A stretch of 64,000 nucleotides of DNA from the sequence record NC_055781.1, one strand, 5' to 3'. Of this stretch, positions 10,305-46,015 are shown piece by piece. A program made the translations under genes and the position numbers. This stretch comes from Escherichia phage p000v. Under the pieces are notes generated by a model. It saw only the letters and a program-made list of their open reading frames with translations, did not search any database and was not told the origin of the DNA. Position 1 is the first letter of the stretch. Every line of letters starts with the position of its first letter.

Positions 10305-10340
10305 GTTTACATAAGGATGATGGTGTGTTACTATCATCCT
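10305..10340 (+). promoter_or_regulatory. early-type promoter (GTTTAC -35, TACTAT -10) with 8-bp inverted repeat AGGATGAT/ATCATCCT
   Basis: Sigma70-like spacing; inverted repeat brackets the -10; upstream of CTS protein gene. Confidence 0.6.
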
Positions 10341-10368
10341 ATCAAATAAACAACCTCAAGGAAATAAA

Positions 10369-10680
10369 ATGAAAACGTATCAAGAGTTTATCGCAGAAGC
10401 TACTAAAGCCGATAAAAATTTTATTATTAACACCACCGGTCCGTTAGATGATGAATACGCTAATGCTATTATTAAGTCAATTTCTAATCAAGGCGTTGAA
10501 GTAACAAATTTCGAATATAAGAAAAATGATACTTATATGGTAATTAGTATCAAAAAAGGTTCAAAGGCTAAAATTAAATCTGCATTTGGTGTTATGCGAG
10601 TCGACCAAATCGATAACCACGATTTTTCACAAACAGGGGTCAAACGCCAGAATACTATTTCATCTAAAGGCATAAAATAG
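10369..10680 (+). CDS. internal protein with capsid targeting sequence (IPI-locus protein)
   Basis: Starts MKTYQEFIAEA, the T4 internal-protein capsid-targeting leader; located next to 57B where T4 has ipI. Confidence 0.8.
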   Translation: MKTYQEFIAEATKADKNFIINTTGPLDDEYANAIIKSISNQGVEVTNFEYKKNDTYMVISIKKGSKAKIKSAFGVMRVDQIDNHDFSQTGVKRQNTISSKGIK

Positions 10681-10718
10681 TTTACATGCTGATAGGACTA
10701 TGTTATAGTAGTCCTATC
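10680..10718 (+). promoter_or_regulatory. early-type promoter with 10-bp inverted repeat GATAGGACTA/TAGTCCTATC around -10 (PeSL-like cassette)
   Basis: GTTTAC, 18-bp spacer, TATAGT; perfect inverted repeat flanks the -10. Confidence 0.6.
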
Positions 10719-10746
10719 AAAACAAATGAGTAAATGGAGAAATAAA

Positions 10747-12181: not shown

Positions 12182-12253
12182 GGCCCTGTAGCTCAATGGG
12201 AGAGCTGTCAGCTCATAACTGATAGGTAGCTGGATCGAAACCAGCCAGGGCCA
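12182..12253 (+). tRNA. tRNA with CAU anticodon (elongator Met or Ile2-type); CCA not encoded
   Basis: Hand-folded cloverleaf: acceptor GGCCCTG/CAGGGCC, D-stem GCTC/GAGC, anticodon stem GTCAG/CTGAT with loop CTCATAA, T-stem GCTGG/CCAGC; 1-72 pair is G-C so not an initiator. Confidence 0.8.
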
Positions 12254-12294
12254 TATTTTGGGAACATAAATACTCTTAGAAATAGGAGATATTT

Positions 12295-12963
12295 ATGTTC
12301 CATTACACTTATAAAATAACAAATAAAATTAATAATAAAATCTATATAGGCGCTCATTCTACCGAAAATTTAGATGATGGATATATGGGTTCTGGTAAAT
12401 TATTAAAAAGAGCCCAAGACAAGTATGGTATAGAAAATTTTAATAAAGAAATTTTAGAATTCTTTGACACTAAAGAGCAGATGTTTGAAGCCGAGAAAAA
12501 TATCGTAAACGAAGAATTTTTGAATCGTTCTGACGTATATAATTTAAAACTTGGTGGCGAAGGTGGTTGGGACCATTTAAATACTTACGAATTTAATTAT
12601 AAAAAGAAAGAAGCCTCTATTAAAGGAGCCAAAGCTTTTAAAGAGAGATTTGATTCTGATGAAGTGCTTCAAGAAAAATATCGTAAAATGGGTTCAGAGA
12701 AATTAAAGCATCTGTGGACTTTACCTGAATACAGAGAAAAATTCTCTAGCACTAAGTCGTTTTTAAATAAAAATCATACTTCCGAAACTATTGCTAAAAT
12801 GAAAGATACCCACGCCAGGAACAAACACCAACAAGGCGAGAAAAATTCCCAGTTTGGTACTATGTGGATTCATTCATTAGAAGAAAAGAAATCTAAGAAA
12901 ATTAAGAAAACCGATCCTATTCCGGAAGGTTGGATTAAAGGCTATAAACTAAAATTTAAGTGA
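12295..12963 (+). CDS. GIY-YIG homing endonuclease (SegB-like, tRNA region)
   Basis: YKITNKINNKIYIGAHS...GSGKL GIY-YIG motif; adjacent to tRNA as T4 segB. Confidence 0.85.
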   Translation: MFHYTYKITNKINNKIYIGAHSTENLDDGYMGSGKLLKRAQDKYGIENFNKEILEFFDTKEQMFEAEKNIVNEEFLNRSDVYNLKLGGEGGWDHLNTYEFNYKKKEASIKGAKAFKERFDSDEVLQEKYRKMGSEKLKHLWTLPEYREKFSSTKSFLNKNHTSETIAKMKDTHARNKHQQGEKNSQFGTMWIHSLEEKKSKKIKKTDPIPEGWIKGYKLKFK

Positions 12964-14370: not shown

Positions 14371-14399
14371 GTTTACTTCTTCCCTAGATGTGTTACTAT
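14371..14399 (+). promoter_or_regulatory. early-type promoter (GTTTAC / TACTAT)
   Basis: 17-bp spacer; same cassette family as other early promoters in window. Confidence 0.55.
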
Positions 14400-14429
14400 A
14401 GAACCTATCAACAACATGAGGAAAATGTT

Positions 14430-14933
14430 ATGAGTCTTTACACTGAACTGAATAAAAAATCTGAAGAATCTGCTGAAACTATTTTTAAAAACGTGCAAAA
14501 GCGTATTTTAGAAAAGATGTATAACGCTGCATCTAAAGGTGAAAAATCTTGCCAGTTTCCGATGAGGTGTTCTTCTGATTTATGCGCAAATACTATTGAA
14601 TGGTTGGAAAGTGAAGGTCTTACAGTAGAGAAAAACCCGGCGACTTCTATTGACAGTGAATCATATATTAGTATTTCTTGGGATAAATCAAGGGTAGAAG
14701 AGAAAGATGGTGATTGGGTTGTAGATGTTAAAACTTCTGATGGTGGACGTTCTGTTGAAGTTTCAGCTGTAGTTAAAGGTACCCACGAACAAAGGACTTG
14801 GGGCTGGGGTGGTGAAGAAAAAGAAATTGTTCTTAGTGTGATTGCCAGGTCAACTAGTAATAAAATTGCACAAAGCATCATTGACGCTGCAATTGCTGAA
14901 GCAGAAAAAATTTGCAAAATTAAAAATAAATGA
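14430..14933 (+). CDS. hypothetical protein
   Basis: Start set at MSLYTELNKK (GAGGA SD, 7-nt spacing); 167 aa. Confidence 0.6.
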   Translation: MSLYTELNKKSEESAETIFKNVQKRILEKMYNAASKGEKSCQFPMRCSSDLCANTIEWLESEGLTVEKNPATSIDSESYISISWDKSRVEEKDGDWVVDVKTSDGGRSVEVSAVVKGTHEQRTWGWGGEEKEIVLSVIARSTSNKIAQSIIDAAIAEAEKICKIKNK

Positions 14934-18005: not shown

Positions 18006-18043
18006 GTTTACAACAAGATAGGGCTATGTTATAGTAGTCCTAT
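18006..18043 (+). promoter_or_regulatory. early-type promoter with inverted repeat GATAGGGCTA/TAGTCCTATC (PeSL-like)
   Basis: GTTTAC, TATAGT; near-identical to cassettes at 10680 and 19298. Confidence 0.6.
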
Positions 18044-18063
18044 CAAATTAAATGGAGTCTACA

Positions 18064-19297: not shown

Positions 19298-19334
19298 GTT
19301 TACAACAAGATAGGACTATGTTATAGTAGTCCTA
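19298..19334 (+). promoter_or_regulatory. early-type promoter with inverted repeat GATAGGACTA/TAGTCCTAT (PeSL-like)
   Basis: GTTTAC, TATAGT; same cassette family. Confidence 0.6.
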
Positions 19335-19355
19335 TTAAAACACGAGGAGAATATT

Positions 19356-20840: not shown

Positions 20841-21073
20841 GTATAGCAATTTACATTAAATCAGAATCATGCGATAGTTATCTGTACACGTATGATAAAG
20901 ATGTGTCAGAAGAAAAAATCAAAGACGATCTTAATATGGACCTTGATATGTTCTGTCCTATTGCAGATTACAAACTTGCGGTCTCTAATAGTGAAAGTCC
21001 ATCTAAAGAAACGCGTATTGAAGAATTTATGTCCGAATTAATGGCCAAATCATGGGACCGAGATGATGAGTAA
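20837..21073 (+). CDS. hypothetical acidic protein
   Basis: Start at ATG 20837 overlapping upstream stop (ATGA); 78 aa. Confidence 0.5.
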   Translation: MSIAIYIKSESCDSYLYTYDKDVSEEKIKDDLNMDLDMFCPIADYKLAVSNSESPSKETRIEEFMSELMAKSWDRDDE

Positions 21074-21521: not shown

Positions 21522-21529
21522 GTAATAAA

Positions 21530-21553
21530 TACCTCCTATAAACGTGGGAGGTA
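21530..21553 (+). promoter_or_regulatory. RBS-sequestering hairpin of lysozyme gene with late-promoter-like AATAAATA just upstream
   Basis: Stem TACCTCC/GGAGGTA pairs anti-SD with SD of gene e; AATAAATA at 21524-21531 would start late transcripts inside the hairpin. Confidence 0.5.
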
Positions 21554-21555
21554 TT

Positions 21556-22044
21556 ATGAATATATTTGAAATGCTTCGTAATGACGAAGGTCTTAGACTG
21601 ACTTTATACAAAGACACCGAAGGCTTTTGGACGATTGGCATAGGCCATTTGGTAACAAAGAACCCGTCTTTAGCCGTAGCTAAAGCTGAACTTGACAGAA
21701 TGATCGGTCGTAAATGCAACGGCACAATTACCCTTGATGAGGCTGAAAAGCTATTTAATGAAGACGTTGATAAAGCCGTTCGTGGAATCTTGGGTAATGC
21801 TAAACTTAAACCAGTGTATGATTCTTTAGACGCGGTTCGTCGATGTGCATTAGTCAATATGGTCTTCCAAATGGGTGTAGCAGGCGTCGCAGGTTTTACT
21901 AATTCTCTTCGTATGCTTCAACAGAAACGTTGGGATGAAGCGGCAGTAAATCTAGCCCAATCTAAATGGTATCGTCAGACACCTAATCGCGCGAAACGCG
22001 TAATCTCAACATTTAAAACAGGAACTTGGAAAGCGTATATATGA
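21556..22044 (+). CDS. e: endolysin (T4 lysozyme E)
   Basis: [32 protein letters not shown]...; near-colinear with T4 lysozyme; start ATG 21556 with GGGAGG SD. Confidence 0.95.
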
Positions 22045-22322
22045 AAACATATAGTGAATTTTTATCAGAATCTATTCTTAACGAAGCTACCGACACATTT
22101 GCAACTAAGCTAGGTGCAGCTTTGGTTGAAGCGGAAAGTCTATTAGCACGTATTTCTGAACTTGCCAGTAAGATAGATACTCGCAAATTTGAACGTACCA
22201 GTGATATCGTTAAGCTTGAAGCCTTGTTGCGTATGTGCGATAAACCGGAAGAAATCGCTAAGAACGGCTCGTTAATGAAACAACGTCTTGAAAAATATAT
22301 TTCAGGCGCTTCAGAAAAATAG
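22041..22322 (+). CDS. capsid-targeted internal protein (CTS leader [10 protein letters not shown])
   Basis: ATG overlaps e stop (ATGA); N-terminal leader matches internal-protein CTS. Confidence 0.7.
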
Positions 22323-22323
22323 T

Positions 22324-22377
22324 GTTTACTTCCTCCAAGGACTTTGATACTATACATTCATCAACTACTTGGAGGAA
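22324..22377 (+). promoter_or_regulatory. early-type promoter embedded in RBS-sequestering hairpin upstream of denV
   Basis: GTTTAC then 10-bp TTCCTCCAAG pairing with CTTGGAGGAA (the denV SD); TACTAT -10 lies in the loop. Confidence 0.6.
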
Positions 22378-22380
22378 ATT

Positions 22381-22794
22381 ATGACTCGTATCAATTTAAC
22401 ACTTGTTTCTGAACTGACCGACCAACATCTTATGGCTGAGTATCGTGAATTACCACGCGTATTTGGTGCAGTCCGTAAACATGTTCAAAATGGTAAACGT
22501 GTAAAGGATTTTAAAATCTCTCCAACATTTATCTTAGGCACAGGTCACGTAACATTCTTTTACGACAAACTTGAATTTTTACGTTTACGTCAAATCGAGC
22601 TAATCGTGGAATGTTTAAAACGCGGTTTCAAAATCAAGGACACGACAGTCCAGGATATTTCCGACATTCCTGTAGAATTTCGTAATAATTATGTCCCGTC
22701 CGAAGCGTCCATTGCGATAAGTCAAGCACGCTTAGATGAAAAAATTGCTCAACGTCCGACTTGGTACAAATACTATGGTAAATCAATTTACTAA
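22381..22794 (+). CDS. denV: endonuclease V (pyrimidine dimer DNA glycosylase)
   Basis: [34 protein letters not shown]...; near-colinear with T4 endonuclease V. Confidence 0.95.
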
Positions 22795-22806
22795 GGAAAA
22801 ACGAAA

Positions 22807-23061
22807 ATGTATCAAGAATTTACCGCTGAAGCAGATGCCAAAGGCCCAAAGTTTAAAGTTAAAGCTTTCATTGGTGATGCGGAAGACTTTGGCTCATTAA
22901 AATGTAATGGGTATTCTTTCTTAGGTGGCGATGGTAAAGAAATCAACACCTATGCAAAACGTAGTGAAATTGCTTATGTTGTAGCAAGTCCTAAAGTAGA
23001 TGTTGACGATATTGAATACGATTTTAACAACTTCGGAATTATTTCTGGCGGTAAAGCTTAA
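22807..23061 (+). CDS. capsid-targeted internal protein (CTS variant MYQEFTAEA)
   Basis: 84 aa; leader related to MKTYQEFIAE. Confidence 0.65.
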   Translation: MYQEFTAEADAKGPKFKVKAFIGDAEDFGSLKCNGYSFLGGDGKEINTYAKRSEIAYVVASPKVDVDDIEYDFNNFGIISGGKA

Positions 23062-23065
23062 AATT

Positions 23066-23095
23066 GTTTACGCTTAAGTATTAATATGGTATAAT
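23066..23095 (+). promoter_or_regulatory. early-type promoter (GTTTAC / TATAAT)
   Basis: 18-bp spacer; followed by CTATCAAAAC motif common to cassettes. Confidence 0.6.
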
Positions 23096-23125
23096 TACTC
23101 TATCAAAACAAACAAGGAAACAAAA

Positions 23126-23440
23126 ATGAAAACGTATAAAGAATTTATTGCAGAATCCGCCAACCAACGCGTTGAAGGTGGTTATATTTGGATTGAACAA
23201 GTTGAGCCACCGAGCCGCACTTCTACAGGTAAATGGAAAATTACCGTTGATGGTCCTGGTGGTAAACGTAGGACTCTTAAAGAAATTAACGGGTACTATG
23301 AAGAAGCTCTTTCGGATGCAGGAACTTACATGATGCAAATCATGATTAAAAACCCTGAAAACCGTTTTGCAGCTAAAGTCTTCCGCCGCATCGGTAATAA
23401 ACTTTATGATGCATACTCTAAAAACTTCCCTAAAGAATAA
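23126..23440 (+). CDS. internal protein (IPII-position, CTS leader MKTYKEFIAE)
   Basis: 104 aa basic protein with canonical CTS; position after denV as T4 ipII. Confidence 0.8.
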   Translation: MKTYKEFIAESANQRVEGGYIWIEQVEPPSRTSTGKWKITVDGPGGKRRTLKEINGYYEEALSDAGTYMMQIMIKNPENRFAAKVFRRIGNKLYDAYSKNFPKE

Positions 23441-23465
23441 CATAAATTAAAACAATAGGAACAAA

Positions 23466-24044
23466 ATGAAAACTTATAAAGAATTTATCGCCGAGGCCTT
23501 TGCAGGAAAAGCTCAAGGCATTAATAAGGACGAGTGGAATTATCGTGGCGGAAACGGCTTTGACCCTAAAACTGCTCCACTTGAACGATATCTAGCCACA
23601 AAAGCTTCTGATTTTAAAGCATTCGCTTGGGAAGGACTTCGCTGGCGTAACGATCTAAATATTGAAGTTGACGGACTCAAATTTGCTCATATTGAAGATG
23701 TTGTTGCTAGTAACTTAGATGCAGCTTTTGTTAAAGCCGACAGCGACCTTCGTCGCTGGAATTTAAAACTGTTCTCTAAACAAAAAGGCCCGAAGTTTGT
23801 GCCTAAAGCAGGTAAATGGGTTATTGATAATAAATTGGCTAAAGCTGTCAACTACGCTGGGCTTGAATTTGCCAAGCATAAATCATCATGGAAAGGTCTT
23901 GATGCAATGACTTTCCGTAAAGAATTTGCCGATGTTATGGCTAAAGGCGGCTTTAAGGCAGAAATAGATACCTCTAAAGGTACGTTTAAAGACGCTAATG
24001 TTCAGTACGCTTACGCCGTTGCTAATGCAGCCCGTGGTAATTAA
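23466..24044 (+). CDS. internal protein (IPIII-position, CTS leader MKTYKEFIAEA)
   Basis: 192 aa with canonical CTS; size and position as T4 ipIII. Confidence 0.8.
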   Translation: MKTYKEFIAEAFAGKAQGINKDEWNYRGGNGFDPKTAPLERYLATKASDFKAFAWEGLRWRNDLNIEVDGLKFAHIEDVVASNLDAAFVKADSDLRRWNLKLFSKQKGPKFVPKAGKWVIDNKLAKAVNYAGLEFAKHKSSWKGLDAMTFRKEFADVMAKGGFKAEIDTSKGTFKDANVQYAYAVANAARGN

Positions 24045-24046
24045 TA

Positions 24047-24068
24047 AGGCCTAAGTATAGGCCTATTT
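24047..24068 (+). terminator. terminator-like hairpin
   Basis: AGGCCT-aagtat-AGGCCT hairpin followed by ATTT. Confidence 0.45.
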
Positions 24069-24222
24069 ACATTTAAATAAAATGGGAACAACCTGGACCT
24101 CATGATTCTATGAGGGATTCCCGCCAACCTGTAATAAGGTCGAGCCCAAGTGCGGTAATGGGTAAATACAGAAATGGACAATTCATGCGCCACGGAATGG
24201 CCCAAACCTTAAGAGAAATAAT

Positions 24223-24762
24223 ATGAGAACATTTTTAACTGGACCTTATCTATCCCTGATGAATGCTTTTACACACCATTCTGATGCTAGAGTAGAAGAA
24301 ATTTGTAAGAACGGTTATATCCCACCGTTTGAAGACGTACTCAAGCAGTACTGTACACTTCGTTTAGACGGCGGCCGACAATCAGGTAAATCAATTGCTG
24401 TGACTAACTTTGCTGCTAATTGGCTGTATGATGGTGGAACAGTTATTGTTCTTTCTAATACTTCAGCTTATGCTAAAATTTCTGCTGGCAACATTGAAAA
24501 AGAATTTTCTCGTTATTCTAGCGACGATATTCGATTCCGTTTATTTACTGATTCTGTCCGTAGTTTTATTGGCAATGAAGGTTCTAAATTCCGTGGATTA
24601 ACGCTTTCTCGTATTCTGTACATAATTGACGAGCCTATTAAAGCTCCTGATATGGATAAGATTTACGACATACATATTAAAACAGTCCAACACTGTTGCA
24701 AAAGCAAATATTGCAACGGCGGTAATGCTCGTCCTCAATTTTTTGTGATTGGAATGCAATGA
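24223..24762 (+). CDS. P-loop NTPase-like protein
   Basis: Walker A-like GGRQSGKS and Walker B-like LYIIDE; 179 aa. Confidence 0.6.
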   Translation: MRTFLTGPYLSLMNAFTHHSDARVEEICKNGYIPPFEDVLKQYCTLRLDGGRQSGKSIAVTNFAANWLYDGGTVIVLSNTSAYAKISAGNIEKEFSRYSSDDIRFRLFTDSVRSFIGNEGSKFRGLTLSRILYIIDEPIKAPDMDKIYDIHIKTVQHCCKSKYCNGGNARPQFFVIGMQ

Positions 24763-25067
24763 TGACCACTATTGAAGTTTTTGAGTATTGTTATAACAGC
24801 TCAGTATGCAATAAAAGGGCTCTTGTAGAAAATTACGAGATTTACCATTTTAAACCTAAACGATATCGTTTGACTAAAGGTCCGTTCGCAGGGCAGCAGG
24901 TTCTTTGTACTGCTCCTAATGCACGACTGATGACTAGTATTCCGCATTTCAAAATGGAATTTATTGATGGACCATTTAAGGGATTAATCACTCAAAGTTT
25001 AATGGCGTTTAATTCTGACCCATTTTTGATTAAAGAAAAAACTTGGATAAATTTATTTTCTAATTGA
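24759..25067 (+). CDS. hypothetical protein
   Basis: 102-aa ORF overlapping upstream stop. Confidence 0.55.
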   Translation: MMTTIEVFEYCYNSSVCNKRALVENYEIYHFKPKRYRLTKGPFAGQQVLCTAPNARLMTSIPHFKMEFIDGPFKGLITQSLMAFNSDPFLIKEKTWINLFSN

Positions 25068-25073
25068 GGTTAT

Positions 25074-25436
25074 ATGAAAGCATATCAAATTCTTGAAGGT
25101 GTACATAAAGGCACTATTTATTTTGAAGACGGTACTCAAGCCCGGATTATTGTCTCTAAGACTTTTAAAGAAGACACTATTGTAGACCCTGAAATTTTCT
25201 ACGGTTTGAATGCCCGTGAAATTGAAATTGAACATCAACCTAAAGTTAAAATTGAAGGTGGTCAACATTTGAACGTTAACGTTCTGCGTCGTGAAACTCT
25301 GGAAGATGCAGTTAAGCATCCGGAAAAATATCCGCAGCTGACCATCCGTGTATCCGGTTATGCAGTTCGCTTTAACTCTCTGACTCCAGAACAGCAACGC
25401 GACGTTATCGCTCGTACCTTTACTGAGAGCCTATAA
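25074..25436 (+). CDS. grcA: autonomous glycyl radical cofactor (GrcA/YfiD-like)
   Basis: C-terminal 60 residues ([59 protein letters not shown]) match E. coli GrcA/PflB glycyl-radical tail as recalled. Confidence 0.9.
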
Positions 25437-25660
25437 TGGCTAAATTGATTATAGAAGGGTCTGAAGATGTTTTAAAATGTTTTGCCGCCTGGTTTAGTTG
25501 CTCAGGCGAGCAATCATTCATTGAAGCATTTAGAATGGGTGATATTACTGGAAGCTATCCGACAACTGATATCACTGTACGTGGATATGGTATTAATGAG
25601 CCTATCCAATTGGTCGAATATGACCTTGCCACTGATGAGGAAATTCCTTATGTCGATTGA
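25436..25660 (+). CDS. hypothetical protein
   Basis: 74-aa ORF, ATGA-coupled to grcA. Confidence 0.5.
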   Translation: MAKLIIEGSEDVLKCFAAWFSCSGEQSFIEAFRMGDITGSYPTTDITVRGYGINEPIQLVEYDLATDEEIPYVD

Positions 25661-25916
25661 AGACATCAAAGGCTACAAGCCGCATACCGATGATAAAATC
25701 GGTAAAGTGAACGCTATTAAAGATGCAGAAGTCCGTCTTGGATTGTTGTTTGATGCTCTGATTGAAGAAGCCTATATCTTGAAAGAAAATGAAACAGAGC
25801 AACAAACCAAAGAAGATATGGATGCAGTGCAGGCTCTTAAGTACGCTAAGCAACATTTAAAAGAAGCCAGCATGTGGGCCTGTCGTGCAGTATTTCGACC
25901 TGAGGAAAAATACTAA
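25650..25916 (+). CDS. hypothetical protein
   Basis: Start set at MSIEDIKGYK; overlaps previous gene end. Confidence 0.5.
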   Translation: MSIEDIKGYKPHTDDKIGKVNAIKDAEVRLGLLFDALIEEAYILKENETEQQTKEDMDAVQALKYAKQHLKEASMWACRAVFRPEEKY

Positions 25917-26131
25917 TGGCTTCTACTATTACTGGGTTATTGGACTTTCAAGAAAAGGTCAACAAAATTTGTAGTGAATACTTAAAGTATCTTGAAGAAG
26001 ACCTTGAAGATTGTAAGGAAGAAGGCGAAGAAGATTATGCTGACCAGCGTCGTCGCCAAATCGAAGAGATGAGGCATTTTGCCAATATGGTATCTAAAGA
26101 ATCTTGGGCTTTAACTCCATTTTATCAATAA
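25916..26131 (+). CDS. hypothetical acidic protein
   Basis: 71-aa ORF coupled to upstream gene. Confidence 0.5.
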   Translation: MASTITGLLDFQEKVNKICSEYLKYLEEDLEDCKEEGEEDYADQRRRQIEEMRHFANMVSKESWALTPFYQ

Positions 26132-26135
26132 AGTA

Positions 26136-26186
26136 GTTTACTTCTCCTCTAGTTGTGTTACTATAGACCTGTCAACTAGAGGAGAA
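26136..26186 (+). promoter_or_regulatory. early-type promoter embedded in 14-bp RBS-sequestering inverted repeat
   Basis: GTTTAC; TTCTCCTCTAGTTG pairs with CAACTAGAGGAGAA (SD of gene at 26193); TACTAT -10 in loop. Confidence 0.6.
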
Positions 26187-26192
26187 ATCAAA

Positions 26193-26651
26193 ATGACTAT
26201 CAATTCGGAAGTTTTTATCCGTCGCAATAAACTCCGTCGAATCTTTGAAACGGAGTTTCGTCAAATCAACGCCAGTATAAAAGATGCTGCAAAGTCTCTT
26301 GGACTACCAGGCTTTCATATAAAGTATTCTCAACATCTCTTAGATCGTGCCATCCAGAGAGAAATAGATGAGAATTACGTTTTTGAATTATTTCATAAAG
26401 TAAAAAATCATGTTAAAGAAGTTGCAGAATTTTTATCAATGCCGGCACGTCCAGATGTTGATGAAGATTTTGTCGAAGGTGTCGAATATCGCCCAGGCCG
26501 TTTAGAAATAACTGACGGAAATCTTTGGTTAGGACTTACAGTCTGTCGCGAAAATCCAGCATTCAAAATGAAGACTCTTCAATGCAGAATGGCTATTATT
26601 AACAGTAAACGACTACCAGGAAAAGCTTCTAAAGCAGTGATTAAAATCTAG
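26193..26651 (+). CDS. hypothetical protein
   Basis: 152-aa ORF with sequestered SD. Confidence 0.6.
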   Translation: MTINSEVFIRRNKLRRIFETEFRQINASIKDAAKSLGLPGFHIKYSQHLLDRAIQREIDENYVFELFHKVKNHVKEVAEFLSMPARPDVDEDFVEGVEYRPGRLEITDGNLWLGLTVCRENPAFKMKTLQCRMAIINSKRLPGKASKAVIKI

Positions 26652-29617: not shown

Positions 29618-29669
29618 GTTTACTTCTCCGCAGGTTGTGTTATAGTAGTCTTTACTTACTAGAGGAGAA
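29618..29669 (+). promoter_or_regulatory. early-type promoter with anti-SD (TTCTCC) in spacer pairing to downstream SD
   Basis: GTTTAC, 17-bp spacer, TATAGT; TTCTCC 29625-29630 complementary to GGAGAA 29664-29669. Confidence 0.55.
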
Positions 29670-29673
29670 CGTT

Positions 29674-29853
29674 ATGTCACGTAAAGAAAAAATTTCTAAG
29701 TTAATGTTTTTGATTGAAGAGTACGCTAATGCCGTATCTGATTGGGAGAATGCCCACGGGTGCGAAGATGGCGATATTGATATCAATAAGGCAATGAAAA
29801 AGATGGCTGACGCCCACACCGAATTGCAAATGTATGTTAACGAGATTATGTGA
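29674..29853 (+). CDS. hypothetical protein
   Basis: Start at MSRKEK (AGAGGAG SD); 59 aa. Confidence 0.5.
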   Translation: MSRKEKISKLMFLIEEYANAVSDWENAHGCEDGDIDINKAMKKMADAHTELQMYVNEIM

Positions 29854-29860
29854 GGACATT

Positions 29861-30067
29861 ATGCTTTACGATTATACTGGAAAATCTGAAGACGGTGTAC
29901 TTGAACTTTTACCTGAAAGCGCTGAAGATGATGATACGGTGGTGATGTTTTGTAAAAATGGTCCTGGGGATAAGGGATGGATTTATCTTCGTCAAGAAAA
30001 TGATCTAATTGTTTTGGACCCAAAACAAGTTGAAGAACTTTATCAACATTTAAAACATAATCGGTAG
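29861..30067 (+). CDS. hypothetical acidic protein
   Basis: Start at MLYDYTGK; 68 aa. Confidence 0.5.
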   Translation: MLYDYTGKSEDGVLELLPESAEDDDTVVMFCKNGPGDKGWIYLRQENDLIVLDPKQVEELYQHLKHNR

Positions 30068-30105
30068 TTTACATCTTGGTAGGATTATGTTATAGTAGTC
30101 CTACC
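30067..30105 (+). promoter_or_regulatory. early-type promoter with inverted repeat GGTAGGATTA/TAGTCCTACC (PeSL-like)
   Basis: GTTTAC, TATAGT; same cassette family. Confidence 0.6.
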
Positions 30106-30124
30106 AAAACGAACGGAGAACAAA

Positions 30125-34237: not shown

Positions 34238-34272
34238 GTTTACAAGGTCTATGGTTATGTTATTATAGACCT
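34238..34272 (+). promoter_or_regulatory. early-type promoter with inverted repeat AGGTCTAT/ATAGACCT
   Basis: GTTTAC, 17-bp spacer, TATTAT. Confidence 0.55.
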
Positions 34273-34293
34273 ATCAACTACTGGAGGTAAAAC

Positions 34294-38829: not shown

Positions 38830-39243
38830 ATGAATATTTCTGAAACTCGCGGTAAATGGTTCAAGATTGTTAAAGAAGACGAAGAACTACAAGTCAAGTT
38901 TCCTGAATTAAAGAAAGGAACAATCATCAAGGTAATTGGTACTACTACCGAAGATGGTTATGGCGACCATGGCATTATCGAAGTGATGTTGAACACAGGT
39001 GAGAAACTTTGCATCTATGACCGTGATACTTCTCTTTGGTGCTTCTGGGAATCCCATTCAATAGATGAACTCGAAGAAATTGACCAAGTAGTTTGTGATG
39101 GTGGACTTGGTGAATTCGAAGGTGAACGTATTTCTTATGCTTTAGCTAAATTAGCTGGTCAAGAAAATAATGACGGTTATGAAGGTAATCTGATGCAAGC
39201 CGCAGCGGAATACATTGAATATTTAGAAAGACGTTTAAGTTAA
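38830..39243 (+). CDS. hypothetical acidic protein
   Basis: Start at MNISETRGKWF; 137 aa. Confidence 0.55.
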   Translation: MNISETRGKWFKIVKEDEELQVKFPELKKGTIIKVIGTTTEDGYGDHGIIEVMLNTGEKLCIYDRDTSLWCFWESHSIDELEEIDQVVCDGGLGEFEGERISYALAKLAGQENNDGYEGNLMQAAAEYIEYLERRLS

Positions 39244-39278
39244 TAAATACCCTTATCTATTTAAGGTAAGGGTTTATT

Positions 39279-39752
39279 ATGTTATTATCTGGCAAATTAT
39301 ACAAAGAAGAAAAACAAAAATTTTATGATGCACAGAACGGTAAGTGTCCTATTTGCCACCGTGAATTAGACCCTGATGTTCAAGGTAACCATCTTGACCA
39401 CGACCACGAGTTAAACGGGCCAAAAGCCGGTAGAGTTCGTGGATTACTCTGTAATCTGTGCAACGCAGCAGAAGGCCAAATGAAGCATAAGTTCAACCGT
39501 TCTGGTCTTAAAGGTCAAAACGTTGATTACCTCGAATGGCTTGAAGCTCTTCTTGCTTATTTGAAACAAGATTATTCTGATAATAATATCCATCCTAATT
39601 TTGTTCCAGACAAAACTAAAGAGTTCTCAAGACTAGGTAAAGAGGAAATGATGGCTGAGATGCTTCAAAGAGGATTTGAATATAATGAATCTGATACTAA
39701 AACACAATTAATAGCTTCATTCAAAAAGCAGCTTAGAAAGAGTTTAAAATGA
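39279..39752 (+). CDS. 49: recombination endonuclease VII (gp49)
   Basis: MLLSGKLYKEEKQKFYDAQNGKCPICHREL...; colinear with T4 endo VII. Confidence 0.95.
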   Translation: MLLSGKLYKEEKQKFYDAQNGKCPICHRELDPDVQGNHLDHDHELNGPKAGRVRGLLCNLCNAAEGQMKHKFNRSGLKGQNVDYLEWLEALLAYLKQDYSDNNIHPNFVPDKTKEFSRLGKEEMMAEMLQRGFEYNESDTKTQLIASFKKQLRKSLK

Positions 39753-42968: not shown

Positions 42969-43133
42969 CCAGGTGCCGCCTGGTCTTCTTTATCCCATTT
43001 CCAATATAATCTATTGGAATCTTCACTTCACTATCTCCTTGTGCCCCTCTCAAACCAAAAATATTTTCATAAAACAGTTTACATCCTCAATAGTTGTGTT
43101 AAGATTAAACCATCTACTATAGAGGAAAATAAA

Positions 43134-43316
43134 ATGACAATTGAAGATAAAGAAATTAAGGTTGACCAGTACTATTCTGTCAACGGTAATGCAGTACAGA
43201 TAACCAGAGTTTCAAGCCTGGATGTTTGGTACCGTTCAATCAAATATCCAGAAATTGGTGAAATGCTTTGTGACCGTGGTATCTTCTGTTCAATTGCAAA
43301 GGAAATTAAGCCATGA
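43134..43316 (+). CDS. hypothetical protein
   Basis: Start at MTIEDKEIK with GAGGA SD; 60 aa. Confidence 0.5.
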   Translation: MTIEDKEIKVDQYYSVNGNAVQITRVSSLDVWYRSIKYPEIGEMLCDRGIFCSIAKEIKP

Positions 43317-45119: not shown

Positions 45120-45385
45120 AATTAACTCGAATCAGTATAACTGAAGAAAAGCTGGGCGAATTTTACGTCGACAACTTTATGAAAGTTACGTATTTTCCAT
45201 TTGTTAAAGGTGTCGGTTTTTGGGAAACTCATGTATCTCAATTAAACGAAGGCGACTATAACGAAACACATGAGAACTTTTTAGATTTTCTTTATGGAGC
45301 TGGATTAACCGAGCTTTATATTGATATACATGAGTTCAAACGTTTAATGGAAAAAGTATTCCAGGCGTATTGTTTGCTCCGATAG
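45116..45385 (+). CDS. hypothetical protein
   Basis: 89-aa ORF, ATGA-coupled. Confidence 0.55.
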   Translation: MKLTRISITEEKLGEFYVDNFMKVTYFPFVKGVGFWETHVSQLNEGDYNETHENFLDFLYGAGLTELYIDIHEFKRLMEKVFQAYCLLR

Positions 45386-45457
45386 TATCTCGTGCTTTAA
45401 GATAGGTCTCTAAATATTATGATATAATAGACCTATGAATTGAGCCAAGAGGTACTT

Positions 45458-46015
45458 ATGACTGAACAAAAACCTAAAAATAACTATGTGAATAATAAAG
45501 AGCTTCTCGCCGCTATAATCGAGTGGAAAAAGGAGCTCTTAAATAATAAAGACCCAAACAAAATTATTCGTCAGAATGATACCATCGGTTTAGCAATTAT
45601 GCTTATCGCCGAAGGCCTGTCCAAACGTTTCAACTTTTCAGGATATACCCAGTCTTGGAAGCAGGAGATGATTGCAGATGGGATTGAAGCCTCTATTAAG
45701 GGACTTCATAATTTCGACGAAACTAAGTACAATAACCCACATGCATACATAACTCGAGCTTGTTTTAATGCTTTTGTCCAACGTATCAAAAAAGAACGTA
45801 AGGAAGTTGCAAAGAAATATAGTTACTTCGTTCATAATGTCTACGACAGTCATGACGATGATATGGTAGCGTTGGTAGATGAAACGTTTATTCAAGACAT
45901 CTACGATAAAATGACGCATTATGAAGAATCCGCTTATAAAGCTCCTGGGGCTGAAAAGAAGGAAGTTGTTAGCGATTCGCCTAGTTTGGATTTTTTATAT
46001 GAGGATGACAATTGA
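45458..46015 (+). CDS. 55: late-transcription sigma factor gp55
   Basis: 185 aa from [26 protein letters not shown]...; near-colinear with T4 gp55; AGAGG SD. Confidence 0.95.

Follow-up and report, generated by a model that had tools for sequence, protein, structure and literature searches.

A probable translation switch set by the transcript start point at early genes of Escherichia phage p000v

In the T4-type Escherichia phage p000v, the early promoters of three genes, denV, regB and a short open reading frame (ORF) that starts at position 43134, are embedded in hairpins in which the promoter spacer pairs with the same gene's Shine-Dalgarno sequence, and this arrangement probably constitutes a translation switch that is set by the start point of the transcript. 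The hairpins lie in a stretch of 64,000 nucleotides (nt) of the phage genome (sequence record NC_055781.1; hereafter, the window, with coordinates counted from its first letter), which comes from a Mosigvirus and, between positions 21000 and 27000, shares 95-97% identity with PhAPEC2-group Mosigvirus phages. In each of the three genes, the Shine-Dalgarno sequence has its complement in the spacer just after the -35 hexamer of the gene's own sigma-70-type early promoter. Under the proposed mechanism, a polymerase that engages this promoter would start about 7 nt after the -10 hexamer, past the 5' arm of the hairpin, and in the resulting short mRNA the helix would be impossible and the ribosome site free; RNA that enters from promoters further upstream would contain both arms and fold into a helix of 10-14 base pairs (bp) that hides the ribosome site. 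Each of the proteins would then be made only as long as its own immediate-early promoter fires, and the same cistron would stay silent on long delayed-early, middle or late transcripts. At gene e, the same design would be combined with a late promoter and the timing would be the opposite, silent early and translated late, as documented for T4.

The promoters of denV and regB match the early consensus (GTTTAC-N17/18-TACTAT), the 5' arm follows the -35 hexamer without a gap, and the -10 hexamer, with a TG two bases upstream of it, sits in the loop (Table 1). The helix formed between the promoter spacer and the Shine-Dalgarno sequence is 10 bp long in denV and 14 bp long in regB. Going by the consensus positions, the distance from the predicted start to the 3' arm is 8 nt in denV and 2 nt in regB, and RNA from the internal promoter would lack the 5' arm. 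The initial annotation had placed such hairpins upstream of denV, of the gene at 26193 and of gene e, and direct reading together with a coordinate check located all three where it had put them. The gene at 26193 is regB because its position matches that of a 'site-specific RNA endonuclease' in the best-matching annotated record, in which nudE, e, a small ORF, denV, a run of small ORFs and this endonuclease gene follow one another, all on the plus strand; it also matches the regB genes of RB and T-even phages, which confirms the identification. The product of ORF 43134 is 60 amino acids long and belongs to phrog_2283, a family without assigned function.

So how different would the two kinds of RNA appear to a ribosome? 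We expressed masking as the opening energy, that is, the free energy required to make the region from -18 to +3 single-stranded, in long RNAs that include 60-250 nt of upstream sequence and in short RNAs that begin at the predicted +1, taken from the consensus as the seventh base after the -10 hexamer. For denV, the opening energy is 12.0 kcal/mol in the long RNA versus 2.2-2.7 kcal/mol in the short one, for regB 18-19 versus 3.0, for ORF 43134 12.6 versus 1.2, and for e 16-18 (17.7) versus 0.8; in folding, the leaders of 24-25 nt that begin at the predicted starts adopt no structure whatever. Thus, the expectation of the initial annotation that the ribosome site is occluded in read-through RNA and free in RNA from the internal promoter is borne out by the folding of long and short RNAs (12-19 versus about 1-3 kcal/mol). 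The minimum free energies are -17.8 kcal/mol for denV (z -5.2), -21.6 kcal/mol for regB (z -4.9) and -16.3 kcal/mol for e (z -5.9), and none of 200 dinucleotide shuffles of each of these sequences folds as well; the z-score of the minimum free energy of ORF 43134, taken alone, is only -2.2. When the sequence upstream of -21 was shuffled by itself, with 300 shuffles for each of the four genes, the observed opening energy was not reached once for regB or ORF 43134 and was reached 6 times for denV and 4 times for e.

The arrangement at denV and regB is not special to p000v, given that T4 has the same architecture at both genes with other stems (TCTCCTGTAG/CTACAGGAGA at denV, TTTTCCTCTTGACTG/CAGTTAAGAGGAGAA at regB). 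From viral contigs we collected regB and denV loci with 73 distinct leader sequences that fall into 40 classes. The stretch of the regB stem that reads CTCTAGTTG/CAACTAGAG in p000v reads CTCTTGACTG/CAGTTAAGAG in T4, and the regB leaders include at least ten distinct stems, such as CTCTTTATG/CATAAAGAG, TCTCCTTTTAGT/ACTAAAAGGAGA, TCTCCTGTAAG/CTTACAGGAGA, ATCCTCATTTG/CAAATGAGGAT and CTCCTCTTG/CAAGAGGAG; further regB pairs among the relatives are TTTTAGT/ACTAAAA and ATTTG/CAAAT. The denV leaders come in two geometries: in one, the 5' arm is located in the spacer (for example, CTCCGTTTG/CAAACGGAG or the 14 bp TTCTCCTGTAGATG/CATCTACAGGAGAA), and in the other, it extends over the -10 hexamer to about +1 and pairs with a 3' arm that spans both the Shine-Dalgarno sequence and the AUG (for example, ATGTCCTCCTA/TAGGAGGACAT and GATGTCTTCC/GGAGGACATC); in both, the 5' arm is upstream of the predicted start. 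Among homologues with more than about 57% protein identity, which belong to enterobacterial T4-type phages, opening energies are mostly 9-24 kcal/mol in the long RNA and 2-6 kcal/mol in the short one. A MAFFT alignment of the regB leaders, intended for a column-wise count of covariation, had to be abandoned because stem lengths and offsets differ between lineages and the helices were accordingly out of register; it was replaced by a register-free test, in which the duplex between the promoter core and the ribosome site was evaluated for one representative of each of the 40 leader classes of regB and denV. Cognate duplexes have a mean energy of -15.4 kcal/mol versus -9.8 kcal/mol for non-cognate ones (Wilcoxon p=2e-7; 0 of 20,000 permutations, p<5e-5). 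Non-cognate pairs share the Shine-Dalgarno core, and therefore the excess comes from lineage-specific extensions. Pairing is thus conserved through sequence change, and these comparative data argue that it is selected.

The most distant loci look different. At the four regB loci with about 40% identity, the mask is missing and a canonical terminator (GGGCTCCTAGGAGCCC followed by a run of T) is found just upstream of the promoter; at the four denV loci in contigs of 345-378 kb, the -35 hexamer of the promoter lies inside a terminator hairpin. The terminator at mask-less loci takes the form GGGTTGAC ttcg GTCAGCCC TTTTT. In the Aeromonas and jumbo phages that lack the mask, an intrinsic terminator abuts or overlaps the promoter. 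Such promoter-adjacent terminators look like an alternative way to block read-through expression.

How common are strong masks? In the window, the 98 plus-strand starts have a median opening energy of 6.4 kcal/mol and a 90th percentile of 11.5 kcal/mol, with regB in first place, e in second and denV in ninth. The third and fifth places go to the homologue of T4 gene 49 and to a segB-like homing endonuclease gene, and the fourth to gene 55; the scan thus recovers known examples since gene 49 and segB are published T4 cases of the mechanism. A search of the plus strand for early promoters (GTTTAC-N16-19-TAnnnT) yielded 17 sites, of which 13 have a called start no more than 120 nt away, and strong masking of the ribosome site was found at three of these 13, namely regB, denV and ORF 43134. 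In T4, where we computed opening energies for 215 minus-strand genes (median 5.7 kcal/mol) and counted as strongly masked those above the 90th percentile (11.6 kcal/mol), 9 of 32 early-promoter-proximal genes are masked (listed in Table 1) versus 12 of the 178 others (Fisher p=0.0012). The latter 12 include five published late cases (segB, 49, e, I-TevI and I-TevII) and three genes at middle promoters (55, 45.2 and 1). The suggestion of the initial annotation that the arrangement is generalised to early genes therefore applies to some early promoters (3 of 13 in the window, 9 of 32 in T4) but not to most of them. Two further candidates in the window, 29618-29676 and 14371-14432, were rejected as masks: they retain a TTCTCC-type remnant in the spacer and show only 6.4 versus 5.9 and 5.5 versus 3.5 kcal/mol, respectively, with z +0.46 for the former. 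Many early promoters open their spacer with TTTCC or TTCTCC despite the lack of an extended helix, among them T4 mobD.5 and mrh.2 as well as those at 29618 and 14371 in the window. This beginning of the spacer is in part complementary to the Shine-Dalgarno sequence; it may be the seed of full masks or belong to the promoter consensus.

The closest known parallel is offered by the late genes of T4. In T4, the hairpin of e reduces lysozyme synthesis from long transcripts 100-fold (PMC3014915), so the initial annotation was correct in regarding the arrangement as documented for T4 lysozyme; a 2010 review of post-transcriptional control in T4 lists inhibitory structures at e, soc, 49 and I-TevI (PMC3014915), and a review devoted to mobile elements extends the list to 25, 26, segB and the intron endonucleases, stating that such genes 'are all late genes' (PMC2988022). 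The hairpins of e, soc, 49, I-TevI/II/III and segB (McPheeters et al. 1986; PMC3014915, PMC2988022) resemble those of denV and regB in that the Shine-Dalgarno sequence or the AUG is in the helix and the 5' arm precedes or overlaps an internal promoter, with the long RNA masked and the short RNA free. They differ in that the promoters of denV and regB are early, sigma-70-type, with -35 and -10 hexamers and the arm in the spacer, and in that the timing would be reversed, with expression in the first minutes rather than delayed to the late period. The late (gp55) promoter TATAAATA is not found at denV or regB, and e has a match at 7 of 8 positions, AATAAATA. The helix of e in p000v consists of 11 bp, including two G.U pairs, and the span 21530-21553 reported in the initial annotation is its core; of the two positions that annotation allowed for the promoter, in the loop or just upstream, only the second stands, the late promoter being located just upstream of the hairpin, given that the loop motif TATAAACG matches TATAAATA at only 6 of 8 positions. 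T4 e has TATAAATA at the position of AATAAATA, and the second, in-loop copy of T4 is degenerate in p000v (TATAAACG). Among some 28 distinct leaders of e, the two arms covary, and in every case the start of the 5' arm is overlapped by (T/A/G)ATAAATA. The e hairpin is the direct homologue of that of T4 e. The starts of gene 49 (endonuclease VII) and of the segB-like gene are likewise masked by hairpins, with NATAAATA upstream of both, and these masks are homologues of the published T4 cases. In addition, gene 55, which encodes the late sigma factor, has a Shine-Dalgarno region (GAGGTAC, 45449-45455) that pairs with GTATCTC at 45385-45391, with an opening energy of 15.5 kcal/mol and z -4.2, and T4 genes 55, 45.2 and 1 score similarly; this region resembles the switch, with a middle promoter in place of the early one.

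Table 1. Features of the window and early-promoter-proximal T4 genes with strong masks
Feature	Position	Strand	Opening energy (kcal/mol)	Remarks
denV early promoter, -35 GTTTAC	22324-22329	+		
denV 5' anti-Shine-Dalgarno arm TTCCTCCAAG	22330-22339	+		within promoter spacer
denV -10 TACTAT	22348-22353	+		preceded by TGa; in hairpin loop; predicted start near 22360
denV 3' arm CTTGGAGGAA	22368-22377	+		contains Shine-Dalgarno GGAGG; ATG 22381
regB early promoter, -35 GTTTAC	26136-26141	+		
regB 5' arm TTCTCCTCTAGTTG	26142-26155	+		within promoter spacer
regB -10 TACTAT	26159-26164	+		preceded by TGt; in loop; predicted start near 26171
regB 3' arm CAACTAGAGGAGAA	26173-26186	+		contains Shine-Dalgarno; ATG 26193
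ORF 43134 early promoter and hairpin	43077-43126	+		beyond the range of the initial annotation
ORF 43134 -35; 5' arm TCCTCAATAGT	43077-43082; 43084-43094	+		
ORF 43134 -10 TAAGAT; 3' arm ACTATAGAGGA	43100-43105; 43116-43126	+		ATG 43134
e late-promoter-like element AATAAATA	21524-21531	+		overlaps start of e 5' arm; 7/8 match to TATAAATA
e hairpin	21529-21554	+		5' arm ATACCTCCTAT 21529-21539; loop AAAC
e 3' arm GTGGGAGGTAT	21544-21554	+		contains Shine-Dalgarno; ATG 21556
Gene 49 and segB-like masks	39235-39284 and 12250-12300		16.8 and 15.3	preceded by AATAAATA and CATAAATA
Gene 55 mask	45385-45460			MotA-box-like TGCTTTA 45393-45399 just downstream of 5' arm; TATAAT 45423-45428
Promoter-confined hairpins at six early promoters	10305-10345, 10680-10720, 18006-18046, 19298-19338, 30067-30107, 34238-34275			
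Transfer RNA gene	12182-12253			only transfer RNA and only Rfam match in the window
T4 alc			21.7 (long), 3.3 (short)	early-promoter-proximal
T4 alt.-3			21.3 (long), 1.2 (short)	early-promoter-proximal
T4 motB.2			21.0 (long), 9.6 (short)	early-promoter-proximal
T4 regB			19.0 (long), 4.9 (short)	early-promoter-proximal
T4 nrdC.8			15.9 (long), 3.3 (short)	early-promoter-proximal
T4 modB			15.8 (long), 2.8 (short)	early-promoter-proximal
T4 denV			12.3 (long), 3.7 (short)	early-promoter-proximal
T4 30.8			12.1 (long), 0.3 (short)	early-promoter-proximal
T4 e.8			11.8 (long), 2.6 (short)	early-promoter-proximal

Literature searches returned no earlier description of masks at early promoters, which are absent from the T4 reviews PMC3014915, PMC2988022 and PMC2988021, although an older mention, especially from the Mosig or Rueger laboratories, is possible; the GenBank records of T4 have no annotated promoter or stem-loop features in the corresponding region. 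The new aspect is the use of early sigma-70-type promoters, which would reverse the timing of the known mechanism; a quarter to a third of the early promoters, those of T4 alc, modB and regB among them, have this arrangement. A comparable device is reportedly found in the transposons IS10 and IS50, where 'fold-back inhibition' of transposase translation is said to have been described by Davis, Simons and Kleckner in 1985 and by Schulz and Reznikoff in 1991: a sigma-70 promoter is said to lie inside a hairpin, such that transcripts from outside mask the ribosome site and those from the transposon's own promoter are translated. In those elements the device reportedly protects the transposon itself from outside activation rather than serving a temporal programme, and no sequence relationship with the phage hairpins is known. 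For the phage, the relevant background is that early transcripts extend into downstream genes (PMC2988021), that RegB production 'must be tightly regulated' and the regB promoter is off at 2-3 min (PMC3014915), and that a 2022 transcriptome and proteome study of T4, in which ModB and RegB are early proteins, found the timing of mRNA and protein to be uncoupled and left translational signals to be studied (PMC9697503).

A different account of the same structures starts from the published PeSL cassettes (Arbiol et al. 2010; Comeau et al. 2014), which, like the loci in the window, consist of an early promoter, a stem-loop, a Shine-Dalgarno sequence and an ATG, are repeated in the genome and are sometimes duplicated before different genes. 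The layout of these cassettes, an A/T-rich upstream region followed by a sigma-70-like promoter, a stem-loop, a Shine-Dalgarno sequence and an ATG, recurs in the window, which has 13 such promoters with an adjacent gene. PeSL stem-loops have been described as terminators and recombination sites, and the words 'translation' and 'ribosome' are absent from the 2010 paper. Under this account, the hairpins would be the terminator or attenuator half of promoter-terminator cassettes as well as recombination sites, and the overlap with the Shine-Dalgarno sequence would be incidental. The papers indeed place stem-loops between the -35 and -10 hexamers or over the -10 hexamer of early promoters in T4-type phages, and one stem-loop of RB49 terminated transcription in a reporter (PMC2839356, PMC4122927). 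Furthermore, 11 of the 13 early promoters in the window carry some inverted repeat that spans the promoter (the other two have none), and at six of these the hairpin is confined to the promoter, with a repeat of 8-12 bp whose 5' arm is in the spacer and whose 3' arm runs from inside the -10 hexamer to about +1 (for example, GATAGGACTA tgtta TAGTCCTATC at 10680). These six hairpins, with energies of -13 to -19 kcal/mol, would be present only in read-through RNA, leave the ribosome site free, lack a U-tract and match the published PeSL stem-loops. Nearly identical cassettes of promoter, hairpin and Shine-Dalgarno sequence are also found before unrelated genes, namely denV and regB in one phage of 170.5 kb and alc and alt.-3 in T4, which suggests duplication or exchange, as has been proposed for PeSLs. 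The terminator account fits the promoter-confined hairpins better than it does the helices of denV and regB. In the latter, the 3' arm is the Shine-Dalgarno sequence itself, the loops are 17-28 nt long, the 3' flanks are A-rich (AAATTATG, ATCAAAATG) without a U-tract, and a terminator scan returned no match at either helix, which thus do not have the properties of intrinsic terminators. Moreover, the 3' arm tracks the Shine-Dalgarno sequence or the AUG in dozens of versions even as the 5' arm moves, which a terminator has no reason to do, and phages with true terminators at the promoter are without the masking helix. As an explanation of denV and regB, the terminator account is therefore unlikely.

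The helix could also serve to hide an intergenic GGAG from RegB in long RNAs or to stabilise downstream cistrons, with the block to translation as a side effect. RegB cleaves Shine-Dalgarno sequences at GGAG, secondary structure inhibits it, sixteen T4 RNAs that have a GGAG and can adopt stable structures are resistant (PMC3014915, PMC1702504), the GGAG of denV withstands RegB in vivo (PMC1702504), and every phage with the helix encodes RegB. However, Durand et al. ascribe the resistance of denV to the sequence 3' of GGAG rather than to structure, several masked sites have no GGAG (for example, GAGGA) or pair mainly at the AUG region, and this type of helix is also present at the late genes e, 49 and segB although late RNAs are not RegB targets (PMC3014915). 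As the primary role, such shielding seems decidedly unlikely, but it is plausible as an added benefit and could coexist with masking. The upstream stop codons are close, TAG at 22320-22322 being 8 nt before the 5' arm of denV and TAA at 26129-26131 11 nt before that of regB, and one might accordingly expect translational coupling, whereby on the long RNA a ribosome that finishes the upstream ORF melts the stem and the gene is dependent on it rather than silenced; yet a terminating ribosome would get no further than the first few bases of the stem, and T4 e, with similar spacing, is still repressed 100-fold on the long RNA, so we consider this very unlikely. Most of the stems are perfect Watson-Crick palindromes and both strands fold about equally, which is what would be expected of a palindrome acting in the DNA, as a protein-binding site or a cruciform that tunes the promoter, with no role in RNA. 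In that case, however, it would be hard to see why the arms retain only complementarity, with no sequence conserved beyond the Shine-Dalgarno core, and why the ribosome site invariably falls in one of the arms; a separation of 17-28 nt between the arms is unfavourable to cruciform formation, and the helices contain 18 G.T against 6 A.C oppositions, in sequences that are not phylogenetically independent. We regard a role in DNA alone as extremely improbable.

Several observations weigh against a transcript-start switch at these genes. The mask is found at only a minority of early promoters and, at 6 of 13, the hairpin stops in the region of +1 and leaves the ribosome site free; therefore, promoter-spanning hairpins need at least one other role. 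The 10 bp helix of denV may mask incompletely, considering that some of the upstream shuffles reach its opening energy. The whole-segment folding energies of the sense and antisense strands do not differ (p=0.28), a comparison that is uninformative given the perfect palindromes formed by most stems. The strand test is weak, and the excess of G.T, coming from related sequences, is only suggestive. Because the cassettes can move as units, some of the apparent 'covariation' may reflect exchange rather than stepwise compensation. Finally, the start sites in this phage are predictions from the consensus only, and it is these sites, together with the presence of read-through transcripts in p000v and the translational effect, that we infer. 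All this notwithstanding, the hairpins are real and non-random, and their interpretation in terms of transcript origin is supported by folding and covariation. With the -10 hexamer placed in the loop and the distal stem outside the Shine-Dalgarno sequence, clean mutational tests would be easy to design.

A few other features of the window deserve mention. Rfam covariance models run against the entire window gave no match for the denV, regB or e hairpins. The transfer RNA gene is directly upstream of the segB-like gene, and T4 has eight transfer RNA genes at the corresponding place. The ORF at 22041-22322, between e and denV, matches internal head proteins. A perfect palindrome, AGGCCTAAGTATAGGCCT, at 24047-24064 has a terminator-like score on both strands and is followed by ATTTAC, a possible -35 hexamer, at the head of the run of genes toward regB.

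It is possible, if somewhat doubtful, that T4-type phages follow a general rule, which could be called licensing by promoter of origin, whereby a masked cistron is translated only from RNA of its own promoter and is silent on long polycistronic RNAs. With the same reservation, the rule might hold for roughly one quarter to one third of the early promoters as well as for some middle ones (55, 45.2 and 1), the masking strand being located in or next to the promoter core. If this is the case, immediate-early proteins such as Alc, ModB and RegB would be subject to a translational shut-off that is independent of mRNA decay and, in conjunction with the mobility of PeSLs, the combination of promoter, mask and Shine-Dalgarno sequence would be a portable, self-insulating expression unit. 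Provided that the masks work as proposed, they would assign a second, testable function to the published PeSL stem-loops and point to a compact way in which a gene can be insulated from read-through expression. They would also explain the short burst of certain immediate-early proteins whose genes stay transcribed within longer RNAs. Several of these proteins are potentially harmful in excess, among them RegB (a nuclease), Alc (an inhibitor of host transcription) and ModB (an ADP-ribosyltransferase).

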